Notes under the pieces: model-generated
What the model was told of the DNA's origin: nothing
Databases searched by the model: none
What the model saw: the letters and a program-made list of their open reading frames with translations, nothing else
Shown here: positions 431 through 11,238 of the stretch, one piece after another
Layout: the number at the start of each line of letters is the position of its first letter
Numbering within the stretch: position 1 is the first letter of the stretch
NCBI GenBank assembly: GCA_043800255.1
Contig: JAZDNF010000009.1
Span: 192,001-256,000 of the forward strand
Length of the DNA stretch: 64,000 nt
Direction of reading: 5' to 3'
From: Candidatus Altiarchaeota archaeon
Lineage (GTDB): Archaea > Altiarchaeota > Altiarchaeia > IMC4 > SCGC-AAA252-I15
Position numbers and translations under genes: made by a program

Positions 431-794
431 TATCCCACGTACACCACGTGAGGCACACAACTATAAAAACGACTAGGGTTCCGACAAGAAGAGTGAGATC
501 TTGATTTGTTTCCAGAGGAGTAGCTCGGCTTCAAATCCGATAGGGGATAATATCCATGGTTGCGACTTGTGGTATGGGCACGGGTATGTTATAGCCTATT
601 CTCTCTTTTCGTTGAGTAATACTAACCGAGAAGATAATTTATATGTCCCAGTACCATTTCTAGCTATATGGCCAAAAAAATAACCTTTTTAGCCAAAACA
701 AAAGTAAAGAAAAGAGTTTCTTTTAGGTCAGGTGGAAGAAAGATATCCTTTACTGCAAAATTGCCTTCTAGGAGGAGGAAAAGAGTTACATTTT

Positions 795-1391
795 ATGCAA
801 GATGATAAAATGACACTGAATGTTTATATAGACTCTGATGTTATGATCGCTTCAGAAATTAAAGATGAACAGAATCATGTAGAATCCAAAAAGTTTATGG
901 ATTATATTATAAAAAGTAGGGGGGAGGATATAAAATTTTTTACTTCCCAGTACACGTTCGTCGAGCTAGCTTCTGCAATGATTCGCAGAACAAAAAAATC
1001 GGATAAGGCATATTCACTACTATATCGTGTAAGAAACTCCTGGAAGAAATTTATTAATCCGTTACCACCCATGGAAAAAATGACCTCCTTCTCAAACTTA
1101 GTAGATAATCTCATAGAAACTGCGATTGGTTTTAAAACACCTGCAGGAGATACCATTCATGCCCATACCTTTGCTGAATATGAGATGGATTATCTTATAA
1201 CTTGGAATATAAAACACTTTGTTGGAATGAGAAGGAAAATAAAAAATATAAAACTTTTAACACCTACGAACGTCCTAAAAGAATTTGAGAAAATTCAGGA
1301 CGGGATACTTCCAAAAAAAGATAAGTATATCCTTAAGGAGACTCTAACAAGATTACTTGAGGAAAGGAATAAGTTAGTGCATCGTAAGTAA
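795..1391 (+). CDS. PIN-domain (VapC-like) protein
   Basis: Motifs VYIDSDV, TSQYTFVEL, GDTIH and LITWNIKHF give the acidic PIN pattern; start ATG 795 or 810. Confidence 0.75.
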   Translation: MQDDKMTLNVYIDSDVMIASEIKDEQNHVESKKFMDYIIKSRGEDIKFFTSQYTFVELASAMIRRTKKSDKAYSLLYRVRNSWKKFINPLPPMEKMTSFSNLVDNLIETAIGFKTPAGDTIHAHTFAEYEMDYLITWNIKHFVGMRRKIKNIKLLTPTNVLKEFEKIQDGILPKKDKYILKETLTRLLEERNKLVHRK

Positions 1392-1424: not shown

Positions 1425-1919
1425 ATGATAAACTGGCAATACTATCCTAAGTCAGATGATATACCTGCAGCAGTAAAACGTGTTATCGACTGTTTTGAAA
1501 AGTCCAGAGAGAATATAGGGTCGCCAAAAAAGCACCTTCAAAGCAATGAAGTACTGGGCCACATACGAGACAATCTCATAGACATAGGGTTCAAGGTCGA
1601 AGGCCCGGAAAGGATAGTAGTACCTGTCCTCTTTGGCATGAACGGGAAGCTTGAGAAATCCTTCCAGGCAGACGCATACAACGAGAAAGACTCTATAGTC
1701 CTAGAGGTAGAGGCTGGGCGTGGCGTCCTTAACAACCAATTCCTTAAAGACCTCTTCCAGGCTTGCATGATGCACGATGTCAAATACCTGGCCGTAGCAG
1801 TGAGGAACAATTACAAGGGCAATAAGGACTTTGGGACAGTAATCGGTTTCTTTGACACACTCTACGCCAGTAGGAGGTTGACACTACCACTAAACGGGAT
1901 ATTAGTAATAGGGTACTAA
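1425..1919 (+). CDS. small restriction-endonuclease-like (PD-(D/E)xK-fold, E-x-E variant) protein
   Basis: FQADAY...VLEVEAGRG...FLKDL resembles BglII/BstYI-type active-site spacing; sits directly before vsr. Confidence 0.5.
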   Translation: MINWQYYPKSDDIPAAVKRVIDCFEKSRENIGSPKKHLQSNEVLGHIRDNLIDIGFKVEGPERIVVPVLFGMNGKLEKSFQADAYNEKDSIVLEVEAGRGVLNNQFLKDLFQACMMHDVKYLAVAVRNNYKGNKDFGTVIGFFDTLYASRRLTLPLNGILVIGY

Positions 1920-1961
1920 GCTGTAACACCACTCGATACAACAGTCCTTGGGGATGCTTAT

Positions 1962-2387
1962 ATGACGGCTAAGTTCACTAAACTATCGCCACCATCTAAG
2001 GCCACGACGAATGTCATGAAGGCCAACAGGCCGGAGGACACTCAACCTGAGCTTATCATGCGTCAGGCACTCCGTAAGGTCGGATTAGGTGGCTATCGGC
2101 TGCATTGGGACGTCCCTGGAAAGCCTGACATAGCCTACCCCGACAAGAAAATTGCTATCTTCGTCCACGGGTGCTTCTGGCATAGATGTCCCTACTGCAA
2201 GTACCCTATGCCAAAGACCAATAGGGCATACTGGGCATGGAAGTTCAGGAGGAACATAAAACGGGACAAGAGGAAGAAGGCCGAGCTTAAGAGATTAGGC
2301 TGGAGAGTATTGAATTTTTGGGAATGCAAGGTGAAGAAGAATACGGATAGATGTGTTGAGAGGGTGAGGGCTTCAATAATTAGATGA
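1962..2387 (+). CDS. vsr: very short patch repair endonuclease
   Basis: DTQPELIMR, PGKPDI, IFVHGCFWH and GWRVLNFWEC motifs; C5-MTase nearby. Confidence 0.93.
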   Translation: MTAKFTKLSPPSKATTNVMKANRPEDTQPELIMRQALRKVGLGGYRLHWDVPGKPDIAYPDKKIAIFVHGCFWHRCPYCKYPMPKTNRAYWAWKFRRNIKRDKRKKAELKRLGWRVLNFWECKVKKNTDRCVERVRASIIR

Positions 2388-2484
2388 CTCTAGGCCATAA
2401 ACGTACGTTTAATTACCACCCGGTCAGGGGGTTCTTTTAGTATATATTCCAGATATAACTATCGTATAGTTATGGGTGGTCATC

Positions 2485-3564
2485 ATGGTCAGCATTGAAG
2501 GTATTGAACCTGTAGAGCAACTTTTCCATAATGTTCGTATTAATGTTTATCCTAAAAAAGTTCGTTTTGAGGATATTAAGTTCTGGAAAGAGAACCTTAG
2601 GACACTTCTAGCTTTTGAACTGCTCGAAAAGGAGAGTAATAAGTCATTAGATGAGCTGACATTAAAAGAGATTACAGAATTTTTAGCTAAGAAAAGGGAA
2701 TTAGCGCTAGAGAAATTAGCTAAATCAATTGAAAGAAATGGAGTGCGTGTGCCGCTGATAATTCTACAAGATGGAACCTTGTTGGATGGGAACCGTAGGT
2801 ATTTTGCTTGTCAGCATTTACTACAAACAAGTGAGTCGAGACCATCTGCCTTAGATTCTATTCCCGTCTGGGTCATTAGAAACTCGGATATTGATGAACG
2901 AAAAAAACAGAAGATACTTGCGGAGGCAAACTTTTTACCAGAAGAGAAAGTCGAGTGGCCATTAGAGGTGAGAGCGAAAGTTATCTATGACTGTGTCACG
3001 TCATGTAAGCAGAGTGGAATGTCAAGGGAAGAGGTATACAAGGAGGTAACTGACCTGTATGGTGTTGATAAAGATACGGTGGACGCATATCTAGATGCAA
3101 TGAAGTTATCAAAGGAGTTCGTGAGGTCTGCGCCTCGAGCTAAAAGAGATTCATACCGAGAAATTGTTCAGGATAAGTTCGTGTATTTCTGGGAGTTCAG
3201 GAACAAGGCATTTACGAAGAAACTTAACTTGAACAAGAGAACGGAATTGCCTAAGGTTAAAAAGATATTTTATTCCATGGTGGCAAATGACCTTTTCAAA
3301 AACCTGAAGCAGGTAGAGCCGATGGCACGTGCCATTAGGGATAGGAGACAATGGGGGATATTACGTGATTCTAATGGTGCCAAGATAGACCAAGTAGAAG
3401 CGTTGTATAAGAGCGAAAAGGCCATTCGGTCTGCAGAAGACAAAATCAGAAACTTCAATAGCTGGTTGAATGAACTAAACACCAAGGCACTTTCTGAGGT
3501 TTCTATTACTCTGCTAAAGAAAACGATTGAAAAATGCCAGGGTATCTTAAAAAGAAGGGTATAA
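2485..3564 (+). CDS. ParB/Srx-like N-terminal domain protein with helical C-terminus
   Basis: LAKSIERNGVRVPLII...LLDGNRRY is the ParB/Srx signature; no adjacent parA. Confidence 0.75.
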   Translation: MVSIEGIEPVEQLFHNVRINVYPKKVRFEDIKFWKENLRTLLAFELLEKESNKSLDELTLKEITEFLAKKRELALEKLAKSIERNGVRVPLIILQDGTLLDGNRRYFACQHLLQTSESRPSALDSIPVWVIRNSDIDERKKQKILAEANFLPEEKVEWPLEVRAKVIYDCVTSCKQSGMSREEVYKEVTDLYGVDKDTVDAYLDAMKLSKEFVRSAPRAKRDSYREIVQDKFVYFWEFRNKAFTKKLNLNKRTELPKVKKIFYSMVANDLFKNLKQVEPMARAIRDRRQWGILRDSNGAKIDQVEALYKSEKAIRSAEDKIRNFNSWLNELNTKALSEVSITLLKKTIEKCQGILKRRV

Positions 3565-3567
3565 AGG

Positions 3568-4728
3568 ATGTCACCAAAAAGGATCCTAGTATTTGCTGGC
3601 ACGAAGTCTCAGACCGGCATTGCAACATTGAGGAGGTTCCCGGGTCTTGAACTTGAAGGAGTAAATGATTTTGATGATATTGCTAGGATGATAACAACAG
3701 AGCCAGCATTAGCAATATTGCCTCTTTGGAACTCCCATGAGGGGGAAATACCAAAGACAAACGTTTTGGATATGGTCTTTGAGAGAGACGTTAAGATCCA
3801 AGAGTTATGGTCTAAGGAGATAACGTTTGAGTTGATATGTAGGCCAGGAACGGCAGAGAAAAACATAAAAAAAGTCATCTCCGTTCGTGTTGCAAAAAGC
3901 CAATGTAGTGAATACCTTGCAGGCAAGGATTTTCAAGAGATGAAATCTACTGTAGAAGCATATAAAGAATTCGAAAAAAGCGAAAACTTTGATGCTGTTC
4001 TTTGCCCCCCAGACCTTTACGAACAAGGCAAGTTCATCCAATTGAGAAACGATGTTTCGAATCCTGCGAACTTCACTACCTTTGGGTTATTGGGTAATGT
4101 AAATTGGAAGCATTGGAGCGGCAAATCCTGGGCACCTTTACGAAGTTATGGGCTGCCTAAGTCATTTATACTCTCAGGGATTGAGATGTCAATCCCATCG
4201 CCTTCTGGACTTTCAGAGGATCAACAAGACTTATTTGACGATATGACCCTGGGAGTGAATCACTTAGATGAGATACCACGGATTATTTTTATTGCGAGAC
4301 GAGGGAGCAGTAGGTGCGGCTTGATATTAGAATCAAAAACGTATACTGACGTATTAATACCCTCTGGTGATAATGGCACTCTTACAGACATTCAAGTAAA
4401 AGAGGAGTTAGGCGAAACAAAAGATTCTTATGTCGGTAACATACTCAATTTTATGGAGGGTAAATTCCCGAACCTTCTAAAGCATGATTTCATTAAGCAT
4501 TTAGGCCACAACACTTGCCTATTTGCATGCCCAACCTTAAATGTTATAACCCATGGTTTTGAGGAAAACCTAACGGAGATGATAGTAAGGAGGACAATTA
4601 ATAAATATTTTGAATTAATAGACAACGGTGTGCCTTGTTCGGATGCTCAGAGGAGACTATTCGAGAAGTATAAACAGAATTACTACGATAAAGGTTTGGG
4701 CTTTATTAATTTCATCAAGGCATGCTAA
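3568..4728 (+). CDS. divergent prephenate dehydratase-fold protein with unknown C-terminal region
   Basis: PLWNSHEG (PDT PIENSxEG), KVISVRVAKSQC (SHPQALAQC), STVEA (STAxA) and NFTTF (NxTRF) occur in the right order and spacing; about 200 extra C-terminal residues. Confidence 0.65.
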   Translation: MSPKRILVFAGTKSQTGIATLRRFPGLELEGVNDFDDIARMITTEPALAILPLWNSHEGEIPKTNVLDMVFERDVKIQELWSKEITFELICRPGTAEKNIKKVISVRVAKSQCSEYLAGKDFQEMKSTVEAYKEFEKSENFDAVLCPPDLYEQGKFIQLRNDVSNPANFTTFGLLGNVNWKHWSGKSWAPLRSYGLPKSFILSGIEMSIPSPSGLSEDQQDLFDDMTLGVNHLDEIPRIIFIARRGSSRCGLILESKTYTDVLIPSGDNGTLTDIQVKEELGETKDSYVGNILNFMEGKFPNLLKHDFIKHLGHNTCLFACPTLNVITHGFEENLTEMIVRRTINKYFELIDNGVPCSDAQRRLFEKYKQNYYDKGLGFINFIKAC

Positions 4729-4766
4729 TGTTGTAAGTAAATCCGATGATCTTTTTATCGTTATGC

Positions 4767-5873
4767 TTACATGGAGTGGAGTATACTCTTCCCTATAGCA
4801 TTTGCCAATTTTACCGGGACAGCATTGCCTATTTGTTTGTATTTTTGGGTCAGGCTTCCCTTAAAAACCCATCCTGGGGGGAATCCTTGAACTAGCGCGC
4901 ATTCTCGGTAGGTAAGTGGGCGGGGCTTGTCGGGGTGACAGAGGTTTGTGGCTCGCCCTGAAGGTGTGGTCAGGATTGTTGGGGATGGCTTGTCCCAGGA
5001 TAGCCTGCGGCAGAAGCCGACCTTCCCGCCAGTTGCGTGCCAGCCCTTGCCCATGACCTTTTTTTGCAGCCTGACAGGCAACGCTTTCCAGTTTTCCCCT
5101 GGGCCGACGAGCCCTTTAGAGAATATCTCATGCCGAGTGTCATCATAAGGCAAGTAGTCCACATGTTCCCTTTCACGTAATCCTCGTAAACGCCTTATTG
5201 CTTTCTTAAGTGGCAGATGGTTGTTGTAGTATCTTGCCTTTGGCTTGGCTAGGTCATAGCCCTTCTTGGCCCCTACGATGAAGACACGTTTTCTTAATTG
5301 CGGCGCCCCATAGTCAGCAGCGTTCAACTCCCACATGTGTATCCGGTAGCTGTCCTTCCCTTTATTGCTGAGCGTAAGGTTGAACTCAGCCATGATGGCA
5401 TCCCATGCAGAGCCGAGGCGTTCGTCTTCTGAAAGCCCAGCGCCTTGAGTCCGACGTTTTTCGAGTGGCCTGTGCTTTTTCGCGGCGGATAATATGCCCC
5501 TCACGTTCTCAAAGATGAAGAACTCAGGCCTAATGCCCCAGACTATGTCCAAAAAGTTCTTGAACAACAGGCCCTCCTCGGAAGAGATTGACTGCCTCCG
5601 CCCGACAGTGCTGAATGGCTGGCAAGGGGGACCGCCAGAGACTACTGCGACTTGGCCTTTTTCCAGGCCAGCGATCGTAAGTATCTCCTTGACATTGACG
5701 CCTCTTATATCCTTATTGAGGATACAGTCCCGGAGGCCAGGCCTATTGGCAATGATTGTCTGTACAGCAGTCGGATCCTTCTCGACGCACGCCCGAACAT
5801 TGAAGCCGGCCTGTTCAAGCCCAAGGTCAAGGCCAAAAGCACCTGTAAACAGCGAGACTACCGTTGGTTCCAT
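4767..5873 (-). CDS. dcm: DNA (cytosine-5) methyltransferase
   Basis: Motif I SLFTGAFG, IV GGPPCQPFS, VI ENVRG, VIII PQLRKRVF, X QIGNAVP. Confidence 0.95.
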   Translation of the reverse strand: MEPTVVSLFTGAFGLDLGLEQAGFNVRACVEKDPTAVQTIIANRPGLRDCILNKDIRGVNVKEILTIAGLEKGQVAVVSGGPPCQPFSTVGRRQSISSEEGLLFKNFLDIVWGIRPEFFIFENVRGILSAAKKHRPLEKRRTQGAGLSEDERLGSAWDAIMAEFNLTLSNKGKDSYRIHMWELNAADYGAPQLRKRVFIVGAKKGYDLAKPKARYYNNHLPLKKAIRRLRGLREREHVDYLPYDDTRHEIFSKGLVGPGENWKALPVRLQKKVMGKGWHATGGKVGFCRRLSWDKPSPTILTTPSGRATNLCHPDKPRPLTYRECALVQGFPPGWVFKGSLTQKYKQIGNAVPVKLANAIGKSILHSM

Positions 5874-6037
5874 CAAAGCCACTTATTGAATGTTGAATAA
5901 TCAGCCAACTCATAACTAATTAGGTTATGGGTTATTTATACATATTAGGTCGGAGCTTTGATCTTATCACGTATTCTACGGCTCAATCTGTTTTGGGTTC
6001 GTAATCGACAAGTGGTTTGGCGTCTATATCCTTGTTT

Positions 6038-6556
6038 ATGAAGAAGGTTACTGGTGTTGGGTATGGGCGAGTTGATTTTGATAAGGTGGTGCATGCAAAA
6101 CGGGGTTTAAGCGAGGGGTACATTGATATCCTCTTGAGGAATGGCTATAGACAGATTCGGGATCCTGGGTTTTCTCAGGGTATGGGAACCGCTTATTATA
6201 TCATGAATTTGACTGATGAATCGGACGAGCATTTCATGTTATGTAACCTCCTGCTTGATGAAATCCGGAGGTATACTCCCAGGGCGGAGTATGCTCTTAC
6301 TATGTTGCCGGACATTACCTTCGGCTTGGATGATGGTCGCTGGGTGGCTGTGGAAATCGAAGACAAGCGGAAGAGCGAGGAAGAGCTAGCACCCAAGCTG
6401 ACTAAGATGAGCAACTATAACGATTTCTTCTATGTGGTCACGGACTGGGAGCTTCTGGAGCATTACAGGGAATACGGGCCAACCTTCACCAGAAGGTCTG
6501 TCCGGGACAAAATACGCTCATATTTTCGAGGCGAATCCCAGGCCCTAAATGAGTGA
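6038..6556 (+). CDS. PD-(D/E)xK-fold nuclease-like protein of the element
   Basis: ESDEH...LPDITF...VAVEIEDK motif. Confidence 0.5.
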   Translation: MKKVTGVGYGRVDFDKVVHAKRGLSEGYIDILLRNGYRQIRDPGFSQGMGTAYYIMNLTDESDEHFMLCNLLLDEIRRYTPRAEYALTMLPDITFGLDDGRWVAVEIEDKRKSEEELAPKLTKMSNYNDFFYVVTDWELLEHYREYGPTFTRRSVRDKIRSYFRGESQALNE

Positions 6557-7509: not shown

Positions 7510-7935
7510 TTAGCGTTTTTTGATGAATTCCTGCGGGGTTAATATCCGTATGCCTTTGTGTTCTTTGAGTTTTAACAGGTGCTGGTCGCCTGTGATTATA
7601 TAGTCTGCTTTTGCTTCGATCGCGCATTCAAGTATTCTGTTGTCTGCTGGATCCTCTCGGATTACTTCAAGTTTATGTCGTGGAGTAATCTTGACTGATA
7701 GCTCTTCGACTAATGCGATGAATCTTTTTCGTTCTGGTTCAGGGACCCTATCAGCTATCTTCTTGCGACATGTAACTCTTGTATATTCCCCTAGGATATC
7801 ATCCGATATATAGTTGATGATAATCCCTTCCGCAACGTTTTTAAGGATTCCTGATAGTTCACTACTTGGGTTGATTAGTGTTGATATAAGGATATTCGTG
7901 TCAAGTACGACCCTAATGGCCTTTGCGATAGGCAT
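7510..7935 (-). CDS. PIN-family toxin (VapC-like)
   Basis: VVLDTNILIS and DPADNRILECA..ADYIITGDQHLL. Confidence 0.9.
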   Translation of the reverse strand: MPIAKAIRVVLDTNILISTLINPSSELSGILKNVAEGIIINYISDDILGEYTRVTCRKKIADRVPEPERKRFIALVEELSVKITPRHKLEVIREDPADNRILECAIEAKADYIITGDQHLLKLKEHKGIRILTPQEFIKKR

Positions 7936-8188
7936 TTATCTCCTCCTCTATCTCCTTAGATGTTAGGCCTCCTGTTCTCCGTAATATCCTTTGTCGTATC
8001 CCAAGTAACTCGGATACCACCTTCTGTCTGTCGACCTTCTTTAGGATTATTGTCTCATCATCCACCGCGCCGACCATGAATAATGCGTCCTTTCCGACCT
8101 TCAGCCTATCTCTGATGGTTTGGGGGATGACTATCTGACCCCGGGTGGACATCTTGGCAGGCTCTACAGTGATATTCCCATAAGCCAT
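7913..8188 (-). CDS. AbrB/MazE/SpoVT-family antitoxin
   Basis: KMSTRGQIVIPQTIRDRL; overlaps and precedes the PIN toxin. Confidence 0.88.
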   Translation of the reverse strand: MAYGNITVEPAKMSTRGQIVIPQTIRDRLKVGKDALFMVGAVDDETIILKKVDRQKVVSELLGIRQRILRRTGGLTSKEIEEEINAYRKGH

Positions 8189-8988: not shown

Positions 8989-11238
8989 CTAGTACCCCTC
9001 CAGTTCGAAGGTTTCCAGCTGCAGCGAGTCCACGTGGATGTGAGTCACCATTATAATCTGCCAGTCAGCGCCCATCTTGTTCAACGCCTCGCCCAGGACT
9101 TCCCTGTGGTCCTGGTCTAATGACCCGAAGGGCTCGTCGAGTATCAGAAGCCGGACAGGTGAGAGCATCTCTATCAGGGCTATCCTGAAGGCCACAGCCA
9201 GCTGCACCTTCTCCCCCCCGGATAGCTGGTCGAGCGATAGTGTGCCTGTTGTAGAGTTCAACCGTAGGTTATAGTCCTTGTCGAATTCAACGTCCCGGTA
9301 CGCTGGATTCTGGTTTATCCTCTTGAAGAAGTAGGTCAGCATATCCCCCAGACTCGAAACGTACCTGTCTCTCAAGTATTTGGGCAAGCCCTTGTCGGTG
9401 TGGAAGACGTCCCTCGCCTTGACAAGAAGCTTTATCCTCCTGCCAACCCTGTCCCTGTCCTCCAGAACCTGCAGGTAGTCCGCTATCCTGTTCTCGAGTT
9501 CGTCGACCTTCCCCTTAGTCTCCCTCATCTGGTACTCCGTCTGGGTCAGCTCAGATTTTATGTTGGATTTTTCCTCTATAAGGGAGTCCTTCTCCCCCGA
9601 AAGGCCGATGAACTCCGAATCATCATAGCTTAATGCCGCAATCTTCCTGCTGATCTCCTCCTCCTCCGTCTTCAGCTTGGAAAGAATCTGCGATAGAGAG
9701 TCCCGCTTGGACAGCAGCTCCCTTTCGGCGGCGACCTCGTCCTCAAGGATGCTGATCTTGCCCTCTGCGCTCTGGAGTTTCATTATGTTCTCCTCGACCT
9801 CCCTCAGGCTCTCCTGAGCGTAGCCTTCAAGGCTGAGCCTGCCTCCCACTTCGACTGCCCTCCGCTTAAGGTCTTCCAGTTCCCGGGTCTTCTCCTTTAT
9901 GGATTTCCTCAGTTCGTTAGCCCTCGCCTCCGCATCCCTCATCCCGTCCAACTCATCCCGGAACTTTCCGACAACCTCCCGGACGCCCTTAAGCTTGGCC
10001 TTAAGGTTAGCGTGCCTGGAATCGAGTTTCCTTATGTGCAGGTCCGCAGTCTGCTTCTCGGAGAATATGTGAACCTCGGATATCTTCTGACCGCACCGCG
10101 GGCATTTGGTCGCCTCAGTAAGCTCGTCCAGGCTCTGGCGGTAGCTCTTCTGCTGTTCGAGCTCGTGAGAGCATCTGGTGACGTCAGCCTGCAGGTTCTC
10201 CAGGATAACGCTGTTTGCGTCGAATTCCTTCCTCAGGTCTTCCTCTCTGGCAAGGACATAATTTATCTTCTCAAGCTCATCTTTCATGGAATCGATGCTG
10301 CCAATATCTTCCATGCGCTCTCCCAGCCTCGAAAGCTCGCCCAAAAGCTCCCTGAAACCCAGATACTTCTTGAGCGAGGACGCCTCGCCCCTGAGGCGTG
10401 CGAGCTCGCTCTTTTTCGAACCGACTGCTGCAAGCTCCCTCTCAACGGACTCGGCATCCTTCTTAAACCCGGCCTTGGAAACGTCAAACCTCGCTGACCT
10501 CTCCTTCAGCGACTCCAACTCCCTCTTCAGATTGGCAAACTCGTCAAGCCTCTCCTGCTTTCTTGCCAGCTTTTCGGAGATTGACTCAAGCTTCGCGTTC
10601 AGATTTGTTAAGTCGTTGCCGAGCTCCGCTATAAGCGACTTTAAGTTGGTAATCTCAACCGTGTACTCCTGCTGCAAATTCTCAGGATACTTTGCAAGCT
10701 GCTCGTCGAAGACGGTAAACCTCGCCTTCTCCTCCTTTATCTTCTCACCAGCAGACTGCCACACTCTCTCGAACCTGTCCAGCCCGAAGAGGGAGTCGAG
10801 CTCCTGCTTCCCGCCCTTCTGCTTCAGCCTGTCGACTATGGAAGTCAGCCCCCCCTGGGGGATGTAGAGGAGCCTGTCAAGGACGTTCTCGCTGAGCATG
10901 CTGTCAAGCGCCTCCGAGACGCTTGAGGGGTTGTCAGCCACAACATTATCGTCGCAGGACAGCTGGGCCCTGGAGGACTTGTCAACGCTCAGGCTCTTGT
11001 CGATCAGGTAATTTTTACCGTCCTTGGCGAATTCCAGCAGAACCCTGCTCTCCCTCGTACCGTTCTTTACCTTGCCCTTGTATCCGAGAGCGCTTGAGGC
11101 GAACGCGAACCTGATGGCCTCCAGTATGCTGCTCTTGCCCGCACCGTTCCTGCCCTCTATCTGAAGGCTCCGGGTCAGGTCTATTTCAAGCCTGCTGTGG
11201 CAAGCCCAGTTCGTTATCGTAAGCCTCCTCAGGCGCAT
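8989..11238 (-). CDS. rad50: Rad50/SbcC-like SMC ATPase
   Basis: Walker A GRNGAGKSS, Q-loop YIPQG, coiled coil, zinc hook CPRCG, signature LSGGE, Walker B LILDEP, H-loop VTH. Confidence 0.82.
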   Translation of the reverse strand: MRLRRLTITNWACHSRLEIDLTRSLQIEGRNGAGKSSILEAIRFAFASSALGYKGKVKNGTRESRVLLEFAKDGKNYLIDKSLSVDKSSRAQLSCDDNVVADNPSSVSEALDSMLSENVLDRLLYIPQGGLTSIVDRLKQKGGKQELDSLFGLDRFERVWQSAGEKIKEEKARFTVFDEQLAKYPENLQQEYTVEITNLKSLIAELGNDLTNLNAKLESISEKLARKQERLDEFANLKRELESLKERSARFDVSKAGFKKDAESVERELAAVGSKKSELARLRGEASSLKKYLGFRELLGELSRLGERMEDIGSIDSMKDELEKINYVLAREEDLRKEFDANSVILENLQADVTRCSHELEQQKSYRQSLDELTEATKCPRCGQKISEVHIFSEKQTADLHIRKLDSRHANLKAKLKGVREVVGKFRDELDGMRDAEARANELRKSIKEKTRELEDLKRRAVEVGGRLSLEGYAQESLREVEENIMKLQSAEGKISILEDEVAAERELLSKRDSLSQILSKLKTEEEEISRKIAALSYDDSEFIGLSGEKDSLIEEKSNIKSELTQTEYQMRETKGKVDELENRIADYLQVLEDRDRVGRRIKLLVKARDVFHTDKGLPKYLRDRYVSSLGDMLTYFFKRINQNPAYRDVEFDKDYNLRLNSTTGTLSLDQLSGGEKVQLAVAFRIALIEMLSPVRLLILDEPFGSLDQDHREVLGEALNKMGADWQIIMVTHIHVDSLQLETFELEGY

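Follow-up and report, generated by a model that had tools for sequence, protein, structure and literature searches.

A ParB-like/prephenate dehydratase-like gene pair associated with C5 cytosine methyltransferases: a probably undescribed methylation-linked cassette of an archaeon and of bacteria

Introduction

Among described systems, those closest to the locus analyzed here include the Type II restriction-modification (R-M) systems based on 5-methylcytosine (m5C), such as SinI (GGWCC), Eco47II (GGNCC) and Dcm-Vsr. The locus lies in a stretch of 64,000 nucleotides from a Candidatus Altiarchaeota archaeon (contig JAZDNF010000009.1), termed here the window, which corresponds to G000:C7:192001-256000 in our numbering. 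It comprises five intact open reading frames (ORFs), as judged from their translation, within window positions 1425-5882 (Table 1): a small candidate restriction endonuclease (REase) gene (ORF 1425), a vsr gene, a gene pair encoding a ParB-like protein and a prephenate dehydratase (PDT)-like protein, and a convergent gene (dcm) encoding a C5 cytosine DNA methyltransferase (MTase). With Type II m5C systems the cassette shares an autonomous C5-MTase with canonical motifs and a repair gene, either vsr or one of the HhH-GPD/Mig type; SinI or Eco47II REases are present in some of its loci, and GGWCC sites are enriched upstream of its MTase genes. In contrast to these systems, the constant partners of the MTase are not REases, but a ParB-fold and a PDT/ACT-fold protein.

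Several other systems combine a ParB-like protein with a DNA-modifying enzyme or with a dedicated partner. DpdB and DndB are ParB-like proteins encoded beside DNA-modifying enzymes and are reported to act on the modification side (PMC12839542, PMC10853773), and the 5mYOX activator is described as a ParB activator of phage T-dioxygenases (PMC13229309). BisD-BisC is presented as a CTP-dependent ParB-like clamp with a separately encoded partner (10.1101/2024.09.16.613209).

The cassette resembles the Dpd 7-deazaguanine system (DpdA, DpdB and DpdC) in that a ParB-like protein (the ATPase DpdB there) is located beside a DNA-modifying enzyme and a third, small-molecule-type enzyme, and in that the SNF2 partners found with distant relatives score best against DpdE, the SNF2-like protein of the Dpd restriction arm. 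It differs from Dpd in that it has no tRNA-guanine transglycosylase/DpdA, its modification enzyme being a C5-MTase, and no Dpd model matches either the ParB-like or the PDT-like protein. The ParB-like protein is set apart from DndB by its DGNRR motif and by the absence of dnd genes among the conserved neighbours; DndB has a DGQHR motif and dndCDE neighbours. With KorB-KorA and BisD-BisC the cassette has in common a clamp-type ParB fold followed by a helical, DNA-binding-like domain, an obligate adjacent partner gene and a mobile-element setting, whereas its partner is a PDT/ACT enzyme fold, its linkage is to a methyltransferase and not to a regulon, and the Glu of the GERR motif is replaced by Asn (GNRR).

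The initial annotation of the locus had compared the ParB-like protein with GmrSD and SspE. What can be kept of the comparison is a ParB/Srx-superfamily protein, predicted here to be an NTPase, in what may be a conflict system, as in the Type IV enzymes of the GmrSD/SspE/DUF262 type. The analogy is otherwise weak: the fold is nearest to clamp-type ParB, KorB and pNOB8 proteins with a helix-turn-helix (HTH)-like domain, no DUF1524/HNH nuclease is fused to it, no PADLOC match is obtained and, unlike those enzymes, which target modified DNA, the cassette comes with a methylase.

Results

The ParB-like and PDT-like genes form a unit that accompanies C5-MTase genes

The synteny counts given here rest on tblastn. 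Using the ParB-like protein as query and one genome per species, 19 loci were obtained, 15 of which are close (37-56% identity). Leaving out L016, which is cut by a contig end, the PDT-like gene is located directly downstream of the ParB-like gene and a Dcm homolog is adjacent in all 14 testable genome loci (L003-L015 and L017). An independent query of metagenomes with the PDT-like protein gave 68 loci, 61 of them unique. The ParB-like gene lies directly upstream of the PDT-like gene in 47 of the 49 metagenome loci with room for it, the exceptions being L075 and L082. Dcm is found in 40 of the 61 unique metagenome loci, and in nine of the 11 that extend at least 2.5 kb to both sides (exceptions L054 and L082). 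The genes that are intact in L004, L010, L058 and L078 were shown to be open by tblastn combined with a stop-codon check. Recurrence of the gene order had been chosen beforehand as the observation on which the proposed module should stand or fall, and it is the rule in genomes and metagenomes alike.

The MTase gene occupies one of two positions, preceding the pair in the same orientation or following it convergently, so that the linkage survives rearrangement. In many loci the dcm or vsr gene abuts or overlaps the ParB-like gene. Within the pair, the distance from the ParB-like stop to the PDT-like start ranges from -37 to +19 nt in 46 pairs, and in the window the PDT-like gene starts 3 nt past the ParB-like stop codon. 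This gap, the ORF coordinates and the flanking vsr and convergent dcm genes had been read from the sequence initially, and the ORF list and the family matches bear them out. When pairwise identities were compared across 33 loci, Spearman rho was 0.86 for ParB-PDT vs. 0.25 for ParB-Dcm, both values being inflated by shared descent. Even so, the difference between the two values shows joint inheritance of the pair, with MTases being swapped in and out.

The cassette is horizontally mobile, and its invariant core consists of a C5-MTase and the translationally coupled ParB-like/PDT-ACT-like pair. About 75 distinct loci are known to us from these searches, distributed over an archaeon and at least eight bacterial phyla. 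The hosts include Margulisiibacteriota, Verrucomicrobiota, Actinomycetota (Bifidobacteriaceae), Nitrospirae, Lentisphaerota, Kiritimatiellales, beta- and zeta-proteobacteria and Fibrobacterota, among others. Plasmid and phage collections searched by tblastn with the ParB-like protein gave no match.

As had been supposed when the locus was first annotated, it matches no named PADLOC system. PADLOC-DB v2.0.0, which includes GmrSD, Dnd, Ssp, Dpd, DISARM, BREX and MADS, returned no family for the ParB-like or the PDT-like protein at E ≤ 0.1; its matches in the cassette are limited to the MTase and Vsr. A full-text literature search found no PDT-like protein linked with ParB-like proteins or C5-MTases in defence or modification, although supplementary neighbourhood tables could list such a case. 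The trio probably represents a methylation-linked system of conflict or control that has not been described before and, missing from both PADLOC and the literature searched, provides a concrete and testable candidate.

The ParB-like protein has a predicted clamp-type fold

The ATG start of the ParB-like gene agrees with a database entry of 359 amino acids (P0001). From the N-terminus onwards the protein consists of a beta hairpin, a ParB N-domain containing GNRRYFA, a helical HTH-like domain and a long helical C-terminus. The DGNRR motif noticed at the outset is part of the sequence LLDGNRRYFAC, invariant in 16 of 16 aligned homologs, and GNRRYFA conforms to the Box II arginine motif GxxRxxA. 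Among 54 sequences, conservation reaches 95% or more at G102, N103, R104, R105, F107 and A108 and throughout the block K143-N149, except at A148 (85-95%). Judging by eye from the alignment, N37/R39 may be the equivalents of Box I, and E147/N149 those of Box III.

Sequence profiles place the protein below their thresholds, both for Pfam ParB_N (PF02195; 15.1 vs. a gathering score of 26.3 bits, E 0.024) and for TIGR00180 (15.9 vs. a cut-off of 58.45). In the alignment-based structure model (predicted local distance difference test, pLDDT, 90.8) the ParB N-domain and the adjoining helical domain are both present, and the best Foldseek matches of this model are ParB-CDP (6sdk, E 2e-5), Myxococcus xanthus ParB, KorB-KorA (8qa9), Spo0J and Noc. 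As ParB, KorB, Spo0J and Noc are the top matches, the modelled fold is of the clamp type and not of the DUF262/GmrS type. A fold search in BFVD returned generic phage ParB-like proteins only. The family comprises 299 database matches. Designed alphaRep/HEAT repeats, matched when the profile of the ParB-like protein was compared with the PDB, were discarded as a repeat artefact based on one helix (VEPMIRSIRDE).

The PDT-like protein is a recruited metabolic fold with an additional domain

Residues 18-177 of the PDT-like protein are matched by Pfam PDT at 67.7 bits (cut-off 25.2), and its structure model (pLDDT 91.5) shows the PDT and ACT folds. Like prephenate dehydratase (PheA/PDT) itself and its repurposed homolog GqqA, it keeps the N, Q and T residues of the pocket. 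Unlike PheA/PDT, it remains far below the NCBIfam equivalog cut-offs (43.1 vs. 219 bits for NF008865; 35 vs. 359 bits for NF008866). The cassette protein is clearly a recruited metabolic fold. The host genome retains a separate canonical PDT (188.7 bits).

Residues N55, S56, G59, Q112, T170 and F172 are common to the PDT-like protein and the canonical PDT of the archaeon, and N55, S56, Q112, T170 and F172, which belong to the pocket, show 95% conservation or more among 59 members of the family; the conserved N, Q and T positions presumably correspond to catalytic residues of the Escherichia coli P-protein. Two motifs that the canonical protein of the host has are changed here, TRF of the active site and ESRP of the ACT domain. 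TRF is replaced by T170-T171-F172, and by T(T/S)F across the family, and the sequence found in place of ESRP is IEMSIPS.

In addition, residues 292-386 constitute an extra domain of about 95 amino acids, with conserved D307, H311, C317, C321, H329 and E337. The ESM Atlas gave nothing usable for residues 185-386. A profile built from 46 C-terminal segments retrieved from PDB sequences only the TAF5 N-terminal domain (E 0.01), and with Pfam no family was found in more than two of the 46 segments. Reading D307/H311/H329/E337 as a His-Me/HNH site is speculation only. Few proteins belong to this family: when 1.84 billion representatives were scanned exhaustively, 36 had E ≤ 1e-30 and 56 had E ≤ 1e-10, and canonical-length PDTs enter the scan only from about E 1e-7. 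Of the original idea that a PDT fold had been recruited as a ligand sensor or effector, the recruitment stands; no recognised effector domain was found that would substantiate the effector part.

The MTase is an ordinary m5C enzyme, and ORF 1425 is an optional neighbour

The MTase of the window is matched by PF00145 at 201.9 bits, shows the motifs FxGxG, PCQ, ENV, QxRxR and GNAVP in its translation and is encoded by the sole PF00145 gene of the host genome. It belongs to a short form (371-387 amino acids) also found in L003, L023, L068 and L071 and 58-63% identical to the window protein, the closest figures (62-63%) corresponding to L003 and L023. A second form of about 430-450 amino acids is 40-46% identical to it, and further types are those that have their own REase. 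Vsr of the window is recognised by TIGR00632 (119.9 bits; cut-off 97.85), Pfam Vsr (64.8 bits) and PADLOC Vsr (70.8 bits). Vsr homologs are present in 27 of the 61 unique metagenome loci and in five of the 14 genome loci, and an HhH-GPD glycosylase cluster was identified in 10 loci, including the module loci L009, L023, L024, L026, L027 and L043. The frequent presence of Vsr or HhH-GPD proteins points to genuine m5C on the host genome. Two features mark the MTase of the module as an ordinary m5C enzyme: the T:G repair genes found alongside, and the fact that MTases linked to SinI or Eco47II can stand in its place.

These features bear on whether the cassette could hypermodify DNA, with the PDT-like protein producing an altered cofactor from or with a prephenate-like compound, for instance by carboxy-SAM-type chemistry like that of CmoA, Dcm transferring it and the ParB-like protein acting as an NTPase helper. 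The strong conservation of the PDT catalytic-type residues, the loss of the R of TRF, which suggests a changed substrate, and the novel conserved His/Cys domain would suit such chemistry. We nevertheless regard it as highly improbable, taking into account that the MTase motifs are canonical (GNAVP included), that the MTase can be exchanged for those linked to SinI and Eco47II, and that Vsr and HhH-GPD point to ordinary m5C-to-T damage.

ORF 1425 had been called REase-like and counted as a member of the module. The first designation has a lead in the ESM Atlas, with feature scores of 0.95-0.97 and a TM score of 0.95 to the cluster "Restriction endonuclease BglII family"/Halo_RE/PF26497; Pfam, NCBIfam, PADLOC and PDB sequence searches gave no match for it. 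Membership does not hold: apart from the window, only L033 and L037 have a homolog next to the module (57-58% identity), which makes three loci in all, and none is found in the 19 genome loci fetched, which include the 14 testable module loci. ORF 1425 is an optional accessory outside the conserved core, and its BglII-like identity is that of a candidate. Its presence here and its recurrence in L033 and L037 could suggest a classical Type II R-M system made of ORF 1425, Dcm and Vsr, between whose genes the ParB-PDT pair was inserted as an unrelated passenger. Synteny largely refutes this explanation, to which we assign very little credence: all 14 testable genome loci show the pair linked to Dcm, ORF 1425 has a homolog in 0 of 19, and the dcm, vsr and ParB-like genes so often overlap or abut.

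Palindromes and GGWCC sites lie upstream of cassette genes

A perfect palindrome, ATAACTAT-CGT-ATAGTTAT, ends 11 nt ahead of the ATG of the ParB-like gene, and an imperfect one precedes the start of dcm, a minus-strand gene, by about 30 nt (Table 1). The pattern ATAACN{5,11}GTTAT has only these two matches in the 64 kb, 0.15 being expected for a pattern that was chosen post hoc, and each is preceded by an AT-rich, TATA-like stretch. No ATAAC-N-GTTAT palindrome was found at the modules elsewhere, and no operator shared between the upstream regions of ParB-like and Dcm genes was seen in 15 other loci.

A different signal is found in other cassettes: a GGWCC site lies within 100 nt upstream of 16 of the 43 module-linked Dcm ORFs (about 7% expected), in most cases 28-37 nt before the called start (L003, L007, L012-L014, L023, L043, L051, L057, L060, L066, L068, L070, L075, L078 and L088). 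GGWCC may accordingly be the recognition sequence of these MTases, which would then sense their own promoter. The dcm gene of the window has no such upstream site.

The palindromes at both promoters, the integrase gene adjoining the module and the Foldseek match to the KorB-KorA co-crystal would be compatible with a ParB-like sliding clamp of the KorB/BisD type that, with the PDT/ACT-like protein as its KorA/BisC-like partner, regulates the genes of a mobile element, the MTase being regulated cargo. BisD-BisC provides a precedent. We consider this improbable: many cassettes are located among housekeeping genes with no other mobile-element genes, the link is specific to C5-MTases (14 of 14 genome loci) and not to integrases or transfer genes, and the conserved PDT catalytic-type residues would be left unexplained.

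Distant ParB-like proteins have motor-type partners

Distant ParB-like proteins (25-34% identity) are encoded in L018, L020 and L021, and by a second copy in L007. There they are followed by an SNF2 helicase of about 570 amino acids and not by a PDT-like protein. These sister loci also carry a C5-MTase and an HhH-GPD glycosylase. Besides DpdE, the best-scoring models for their SNF2 proteins are ZorD and DrmD. The sole longer homolog found, the 883-aa protein P0254, fuses a ParB-like part (residues 10-344) to an SNF2 part (486-855); it comes from one contig and has therefore to be taken with caution. Judging from the sister loci, ParB modules linked to MTases may form a broader family that has gone unrecognised.

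A sigma-70-like gene is often located upstream of the sister module (L018, L019). L021 also encodes a 395-aa protein whose C-terminal D...ExK...QxxxY pattern looks PD-(D/E)xK-like by eye; no tool confirmed it, and a PDB sequence search gave no match.

A close ParB-like protein (52% identity) is found in L091, a phage-like contig with a terminase; its gene comes after vsr and is followed by an 83-aa ORF, a HerA/DUF87-like ATPase of 582 amino acids and a Dam-like MTase.

The pair as the proposed non-methylase arm of a possible R-M-like module

REases and other defence genes surround the cassette in part of the loci. A classical REase lies beside the MTase in a minority, at least six distinct loci, of which five are family matches and L069 was recognised by BLAST clustering with the SinI gene. 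SinI REase was detected in L050 (262 bits, Pfam), the cluster mate of L069; Eco47II REase in L016 (185 bits, Pfam) and, by clustering, in L045 and L079; and PADLOC REase_II in L009 (373 bits). HNH genes are present in L008, L031 and L050. Most cassettes have no recognisable nuclease. The surroundings are of the defence type at several loci (Type IIG and Type III R-M, Mrr, HNH, PLD, a GHKL ATPase with DUF2971, PIN), and L012 (hydantoinase), L015 (DUF362), L034 (histidine biosynthesis) and L043 (MoCF) have cassettes flanked by housekeeping genes and no REase.

On account of the patchy cross-domain spread, the stand-alone cassettes free of REases, the defence-type neighbours and the motor-type partners in sister systems, the explanation that we favour, with a probability of roughly 0.4, is an R-M-like conflict module in which the ParB-like and PDT-like proteins are the non-methylase arm. 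The MTase, probably of the GGWCC type in many loci, would mark self DNA. The ParB-like protein, a predicted NTP-gated DNA clamp or switch with an HTH-like domain, would engage unmarked DNA, either directly or through the MTase. Its obligate PDT/ACT-like partner, in which a ligand pocket of the PDT type is retained and a novel His/Cys domain is added at the C-terminus, would supply the effector or gating activity, a place that an SNF2 helicase or a HerA-like ATPase may fill in relatives. The output might be non-nucleolytic, by clamp-spreading silencing or by a metabolic effect, or might depend on a cryptic nuclease site. A specific version of the metabolic effect, in which the ParB-like clamp reads the absence of m5C on invading or newly unmethylated DNA and switches on a PDT-derived enzyme (intact pocket, TTF for TRF, new His/Cys domain) that consumes or produces a small metabolite, thus arresting the cell or the invader without any nucleolysis, appears unlikely to us.

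Several observations weigh against a conflict module. In neither protein of the pair was a nuclease or another recognised effector domain detected with Pfam, NCBIfam, PADLOC, the ESM Atlas and the PDB profile search. At the loci with a classical REase, to which the three loci with a BglII-like gene (window included) may be added, a second restriction arm would be redundant. The initial proposal that the pair takes the place of the restriction component is not supported. In L004 the dcm gene is split over two frames, with the neighbouring vsr, ParB-like and PDT-like genes open; this is unexpected if the pair is toxic without methylation. Real decay of the MTase gene or an assembly error in the metagenome-assembled genome are both possible causes. 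In L054 the pair has no Dcm within about 4.7 kb, and neither a PDT-like gene nor a C5-MTase is present in the 28-kb fragment (61% complete) of L091. The weak co-evolution of ParB-like and Dcm proteins argues against a tight and specific MTase-effector complex. Lastly, most documented ParB-like proteins beside DNA-modifying enzymes (DpdB, DndB, 5mYOX activator) act on the modification side.

The main alternative, which we consider somewhat less probable, is that the pair is an accessory of modification: the ParB-like protein, with a PDT/ACT-like ligand sensor as partner, would load on DNA and activate, target or throttle the C5-MTase, or control its expression, and restriction, where present, would be left to separate classical REases. 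In favour of this, the pair is constantly accompanied by nothing but an m5C MTase, which can be of several types, with REases being optional, and no nuclease domain is found in the pair; L004 retains the pair with a broken MTase; and in L091 a close ParB-like protein is encoded beside vsr and a Dam-like MTase. The matching palindromes at the ParB-like and dcm promoters of the window are in line with a role in expression, as are the GGWCC sites upstream of Dcm genes, which suggest methylation-sensitive control. Precedents are DpdB for DpdA, DndB, and the ParB activator of phage T-dioxygenases (PMC12839542, PMC10853773, PMC13229309). Against it, Type II C5-MTases such as M.SinI work alone, so that some 750 amino acids of helper proteins would have no explanation, and the palindrome is not conserved at other loci. 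The patchy cross-domain distribution and the defence-island neighbours suit a conflict system better than an epigenetic helper, and the SNF2 and HerA-like partners of the relatives resemble restriction-type motors.

Should the cassette be defensive, methylation-based immunity would gain an arm that is not a nuclease, and a shikimate-pathway enzyme fold would have been recruited into DNA conflict. If the pair is a modification helper, ParB-like clamps that steer DNA-modifying enzymes, such as DpdB and the 5mYOX activator, would extend to ordinary C5-methyltransferases.

The cassette of the window and its surroundings

The proposal that the pair is AT-rich and lies in an integrated element was compared with the base composition and the neighbouring genes. 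GC content is 0.38-0.42 over positions 2501-4500, in agreement with the AT-richness described, vs. roughly 0.5 or more in most bins beyond about 8.5 kb. A tyrosine integrase of 350 amino acids (PF00589, 67.7 bits) ends at window base 73, and the ParB-like gene was found in none of the 40 relatives searched (completeness 57-97%). As the integrase adjoins it and the gene was not found in these relatives, the cassette looks acquired in this archaeal genome. The genome also encodes ribosomal protein S6e, a family matched in the four archaea, and in no others, of 14 control genomes. The integrated element is partly confirmed; no convincing att direct repeats were detected on either side of the island.

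Table 1. Coordinates of the cassette genes, of the candidate sites and of further features. Positions without prefix are those of the window.
Feature	Coordinates	Strand	Basis or comment
164-aa protein (ORF 1425)	1425-1919	+	BglII/BamHI-like PD-(D/E)xK candidate, ESM Atlas lead
Vsr T:G mismatch endonuclease	1962-2387	+	TIGR00632, Pfam Vsr, PADLOC Vsr
ParB/Srx-fold protein, 359 aa	2485-3564	+	Predicted fold, DGNRR motif
PDT+ACT-fold protein, 386 aa	3568-4728	+	Pfam PDT, fold
C5 cytosine DNA methyltransferase, 371 aa, short type	4767-5882	-	PF00145; convergent with the ParB-PDT pair
Perfect 8+3+8 palindrome	2455-2473		Candidate operator or loading site
Imperfect palindrome ATAAC-TAATTAG-GTTAT	5912-5928		Second of two pattern matches
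ParB-like + SNF2 sister module	L018:6393-12170		
ParB-like + SNF2 sister module	L020:6649-13577		
ParB-like + SNF2 sister module	L021:5622-12675		
ParB-like + SNF2 sister module	L007:371-5035		
395-aa protein	L021:10799-11986		PD-(D/E)xK-like by eye
Phage-like contig locus	L091:134-8746		ParB-like, vsr, HerA/DUF87-like ATPase, Dam-like MTase
Split Dcm	L004:6199-7276		Two frames
Tyrosine integrase	G000:C7:191021-192073	-	PF00589
Low-GC stretch	G000:C7:189655-192073 (L022:3655-6073)		Just upstream of the window start
219-aa ORF (ORF 732)	732-1391	+	Weak PIN-like similarity
179-aa ORF (ORF 6017)	6017-6556	+	Divergent from dcm
Second copy of ORF 6017	G000:C5:71370-71843		
VapBC-type pair	7510-8188	-	PIN_3 toxin, MazE/AbrB-like antitoxin
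749-aa ATPase	8989-11238	-	SMC/Rad50/SbcC-like

The low-GC stretch (0.38-0.39) contains, besides the tyrosine integrase gene, a gene for a 443-aa protein that has no family match. No homologs of window ORFs 732, 6017 and 6844 were found at other modules. ORF 732, located upstream of the BglII-like ORF, shows its weak PIN-like similarity at E 0.05-0.07. ORF 6017 has a PD...EIEDK pattern by eye, and a PDB sequence search gave no match for it. Of 60 other genomes sampled from the phylum, 43 have relatives of this ORF, mostly within open frames of about 760-800 amino acids and in many rows with one or two stops inside the match, and the host genome has a second copy; given its occurrence in these 43 genomes, ORF 6017 is a lineage-typical domain outside the cassette.

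On the far side of the island, the PIN_3 toxin gene (82 bits) of the VapBC-type pair overlaps the antitoxin gene; a PIN_12 protein is encoded upstream of Dcm in L023. The 749-aa ATPase, with a long coiled coil, is encoded just beyond the island and is probably a housekeeping protein.

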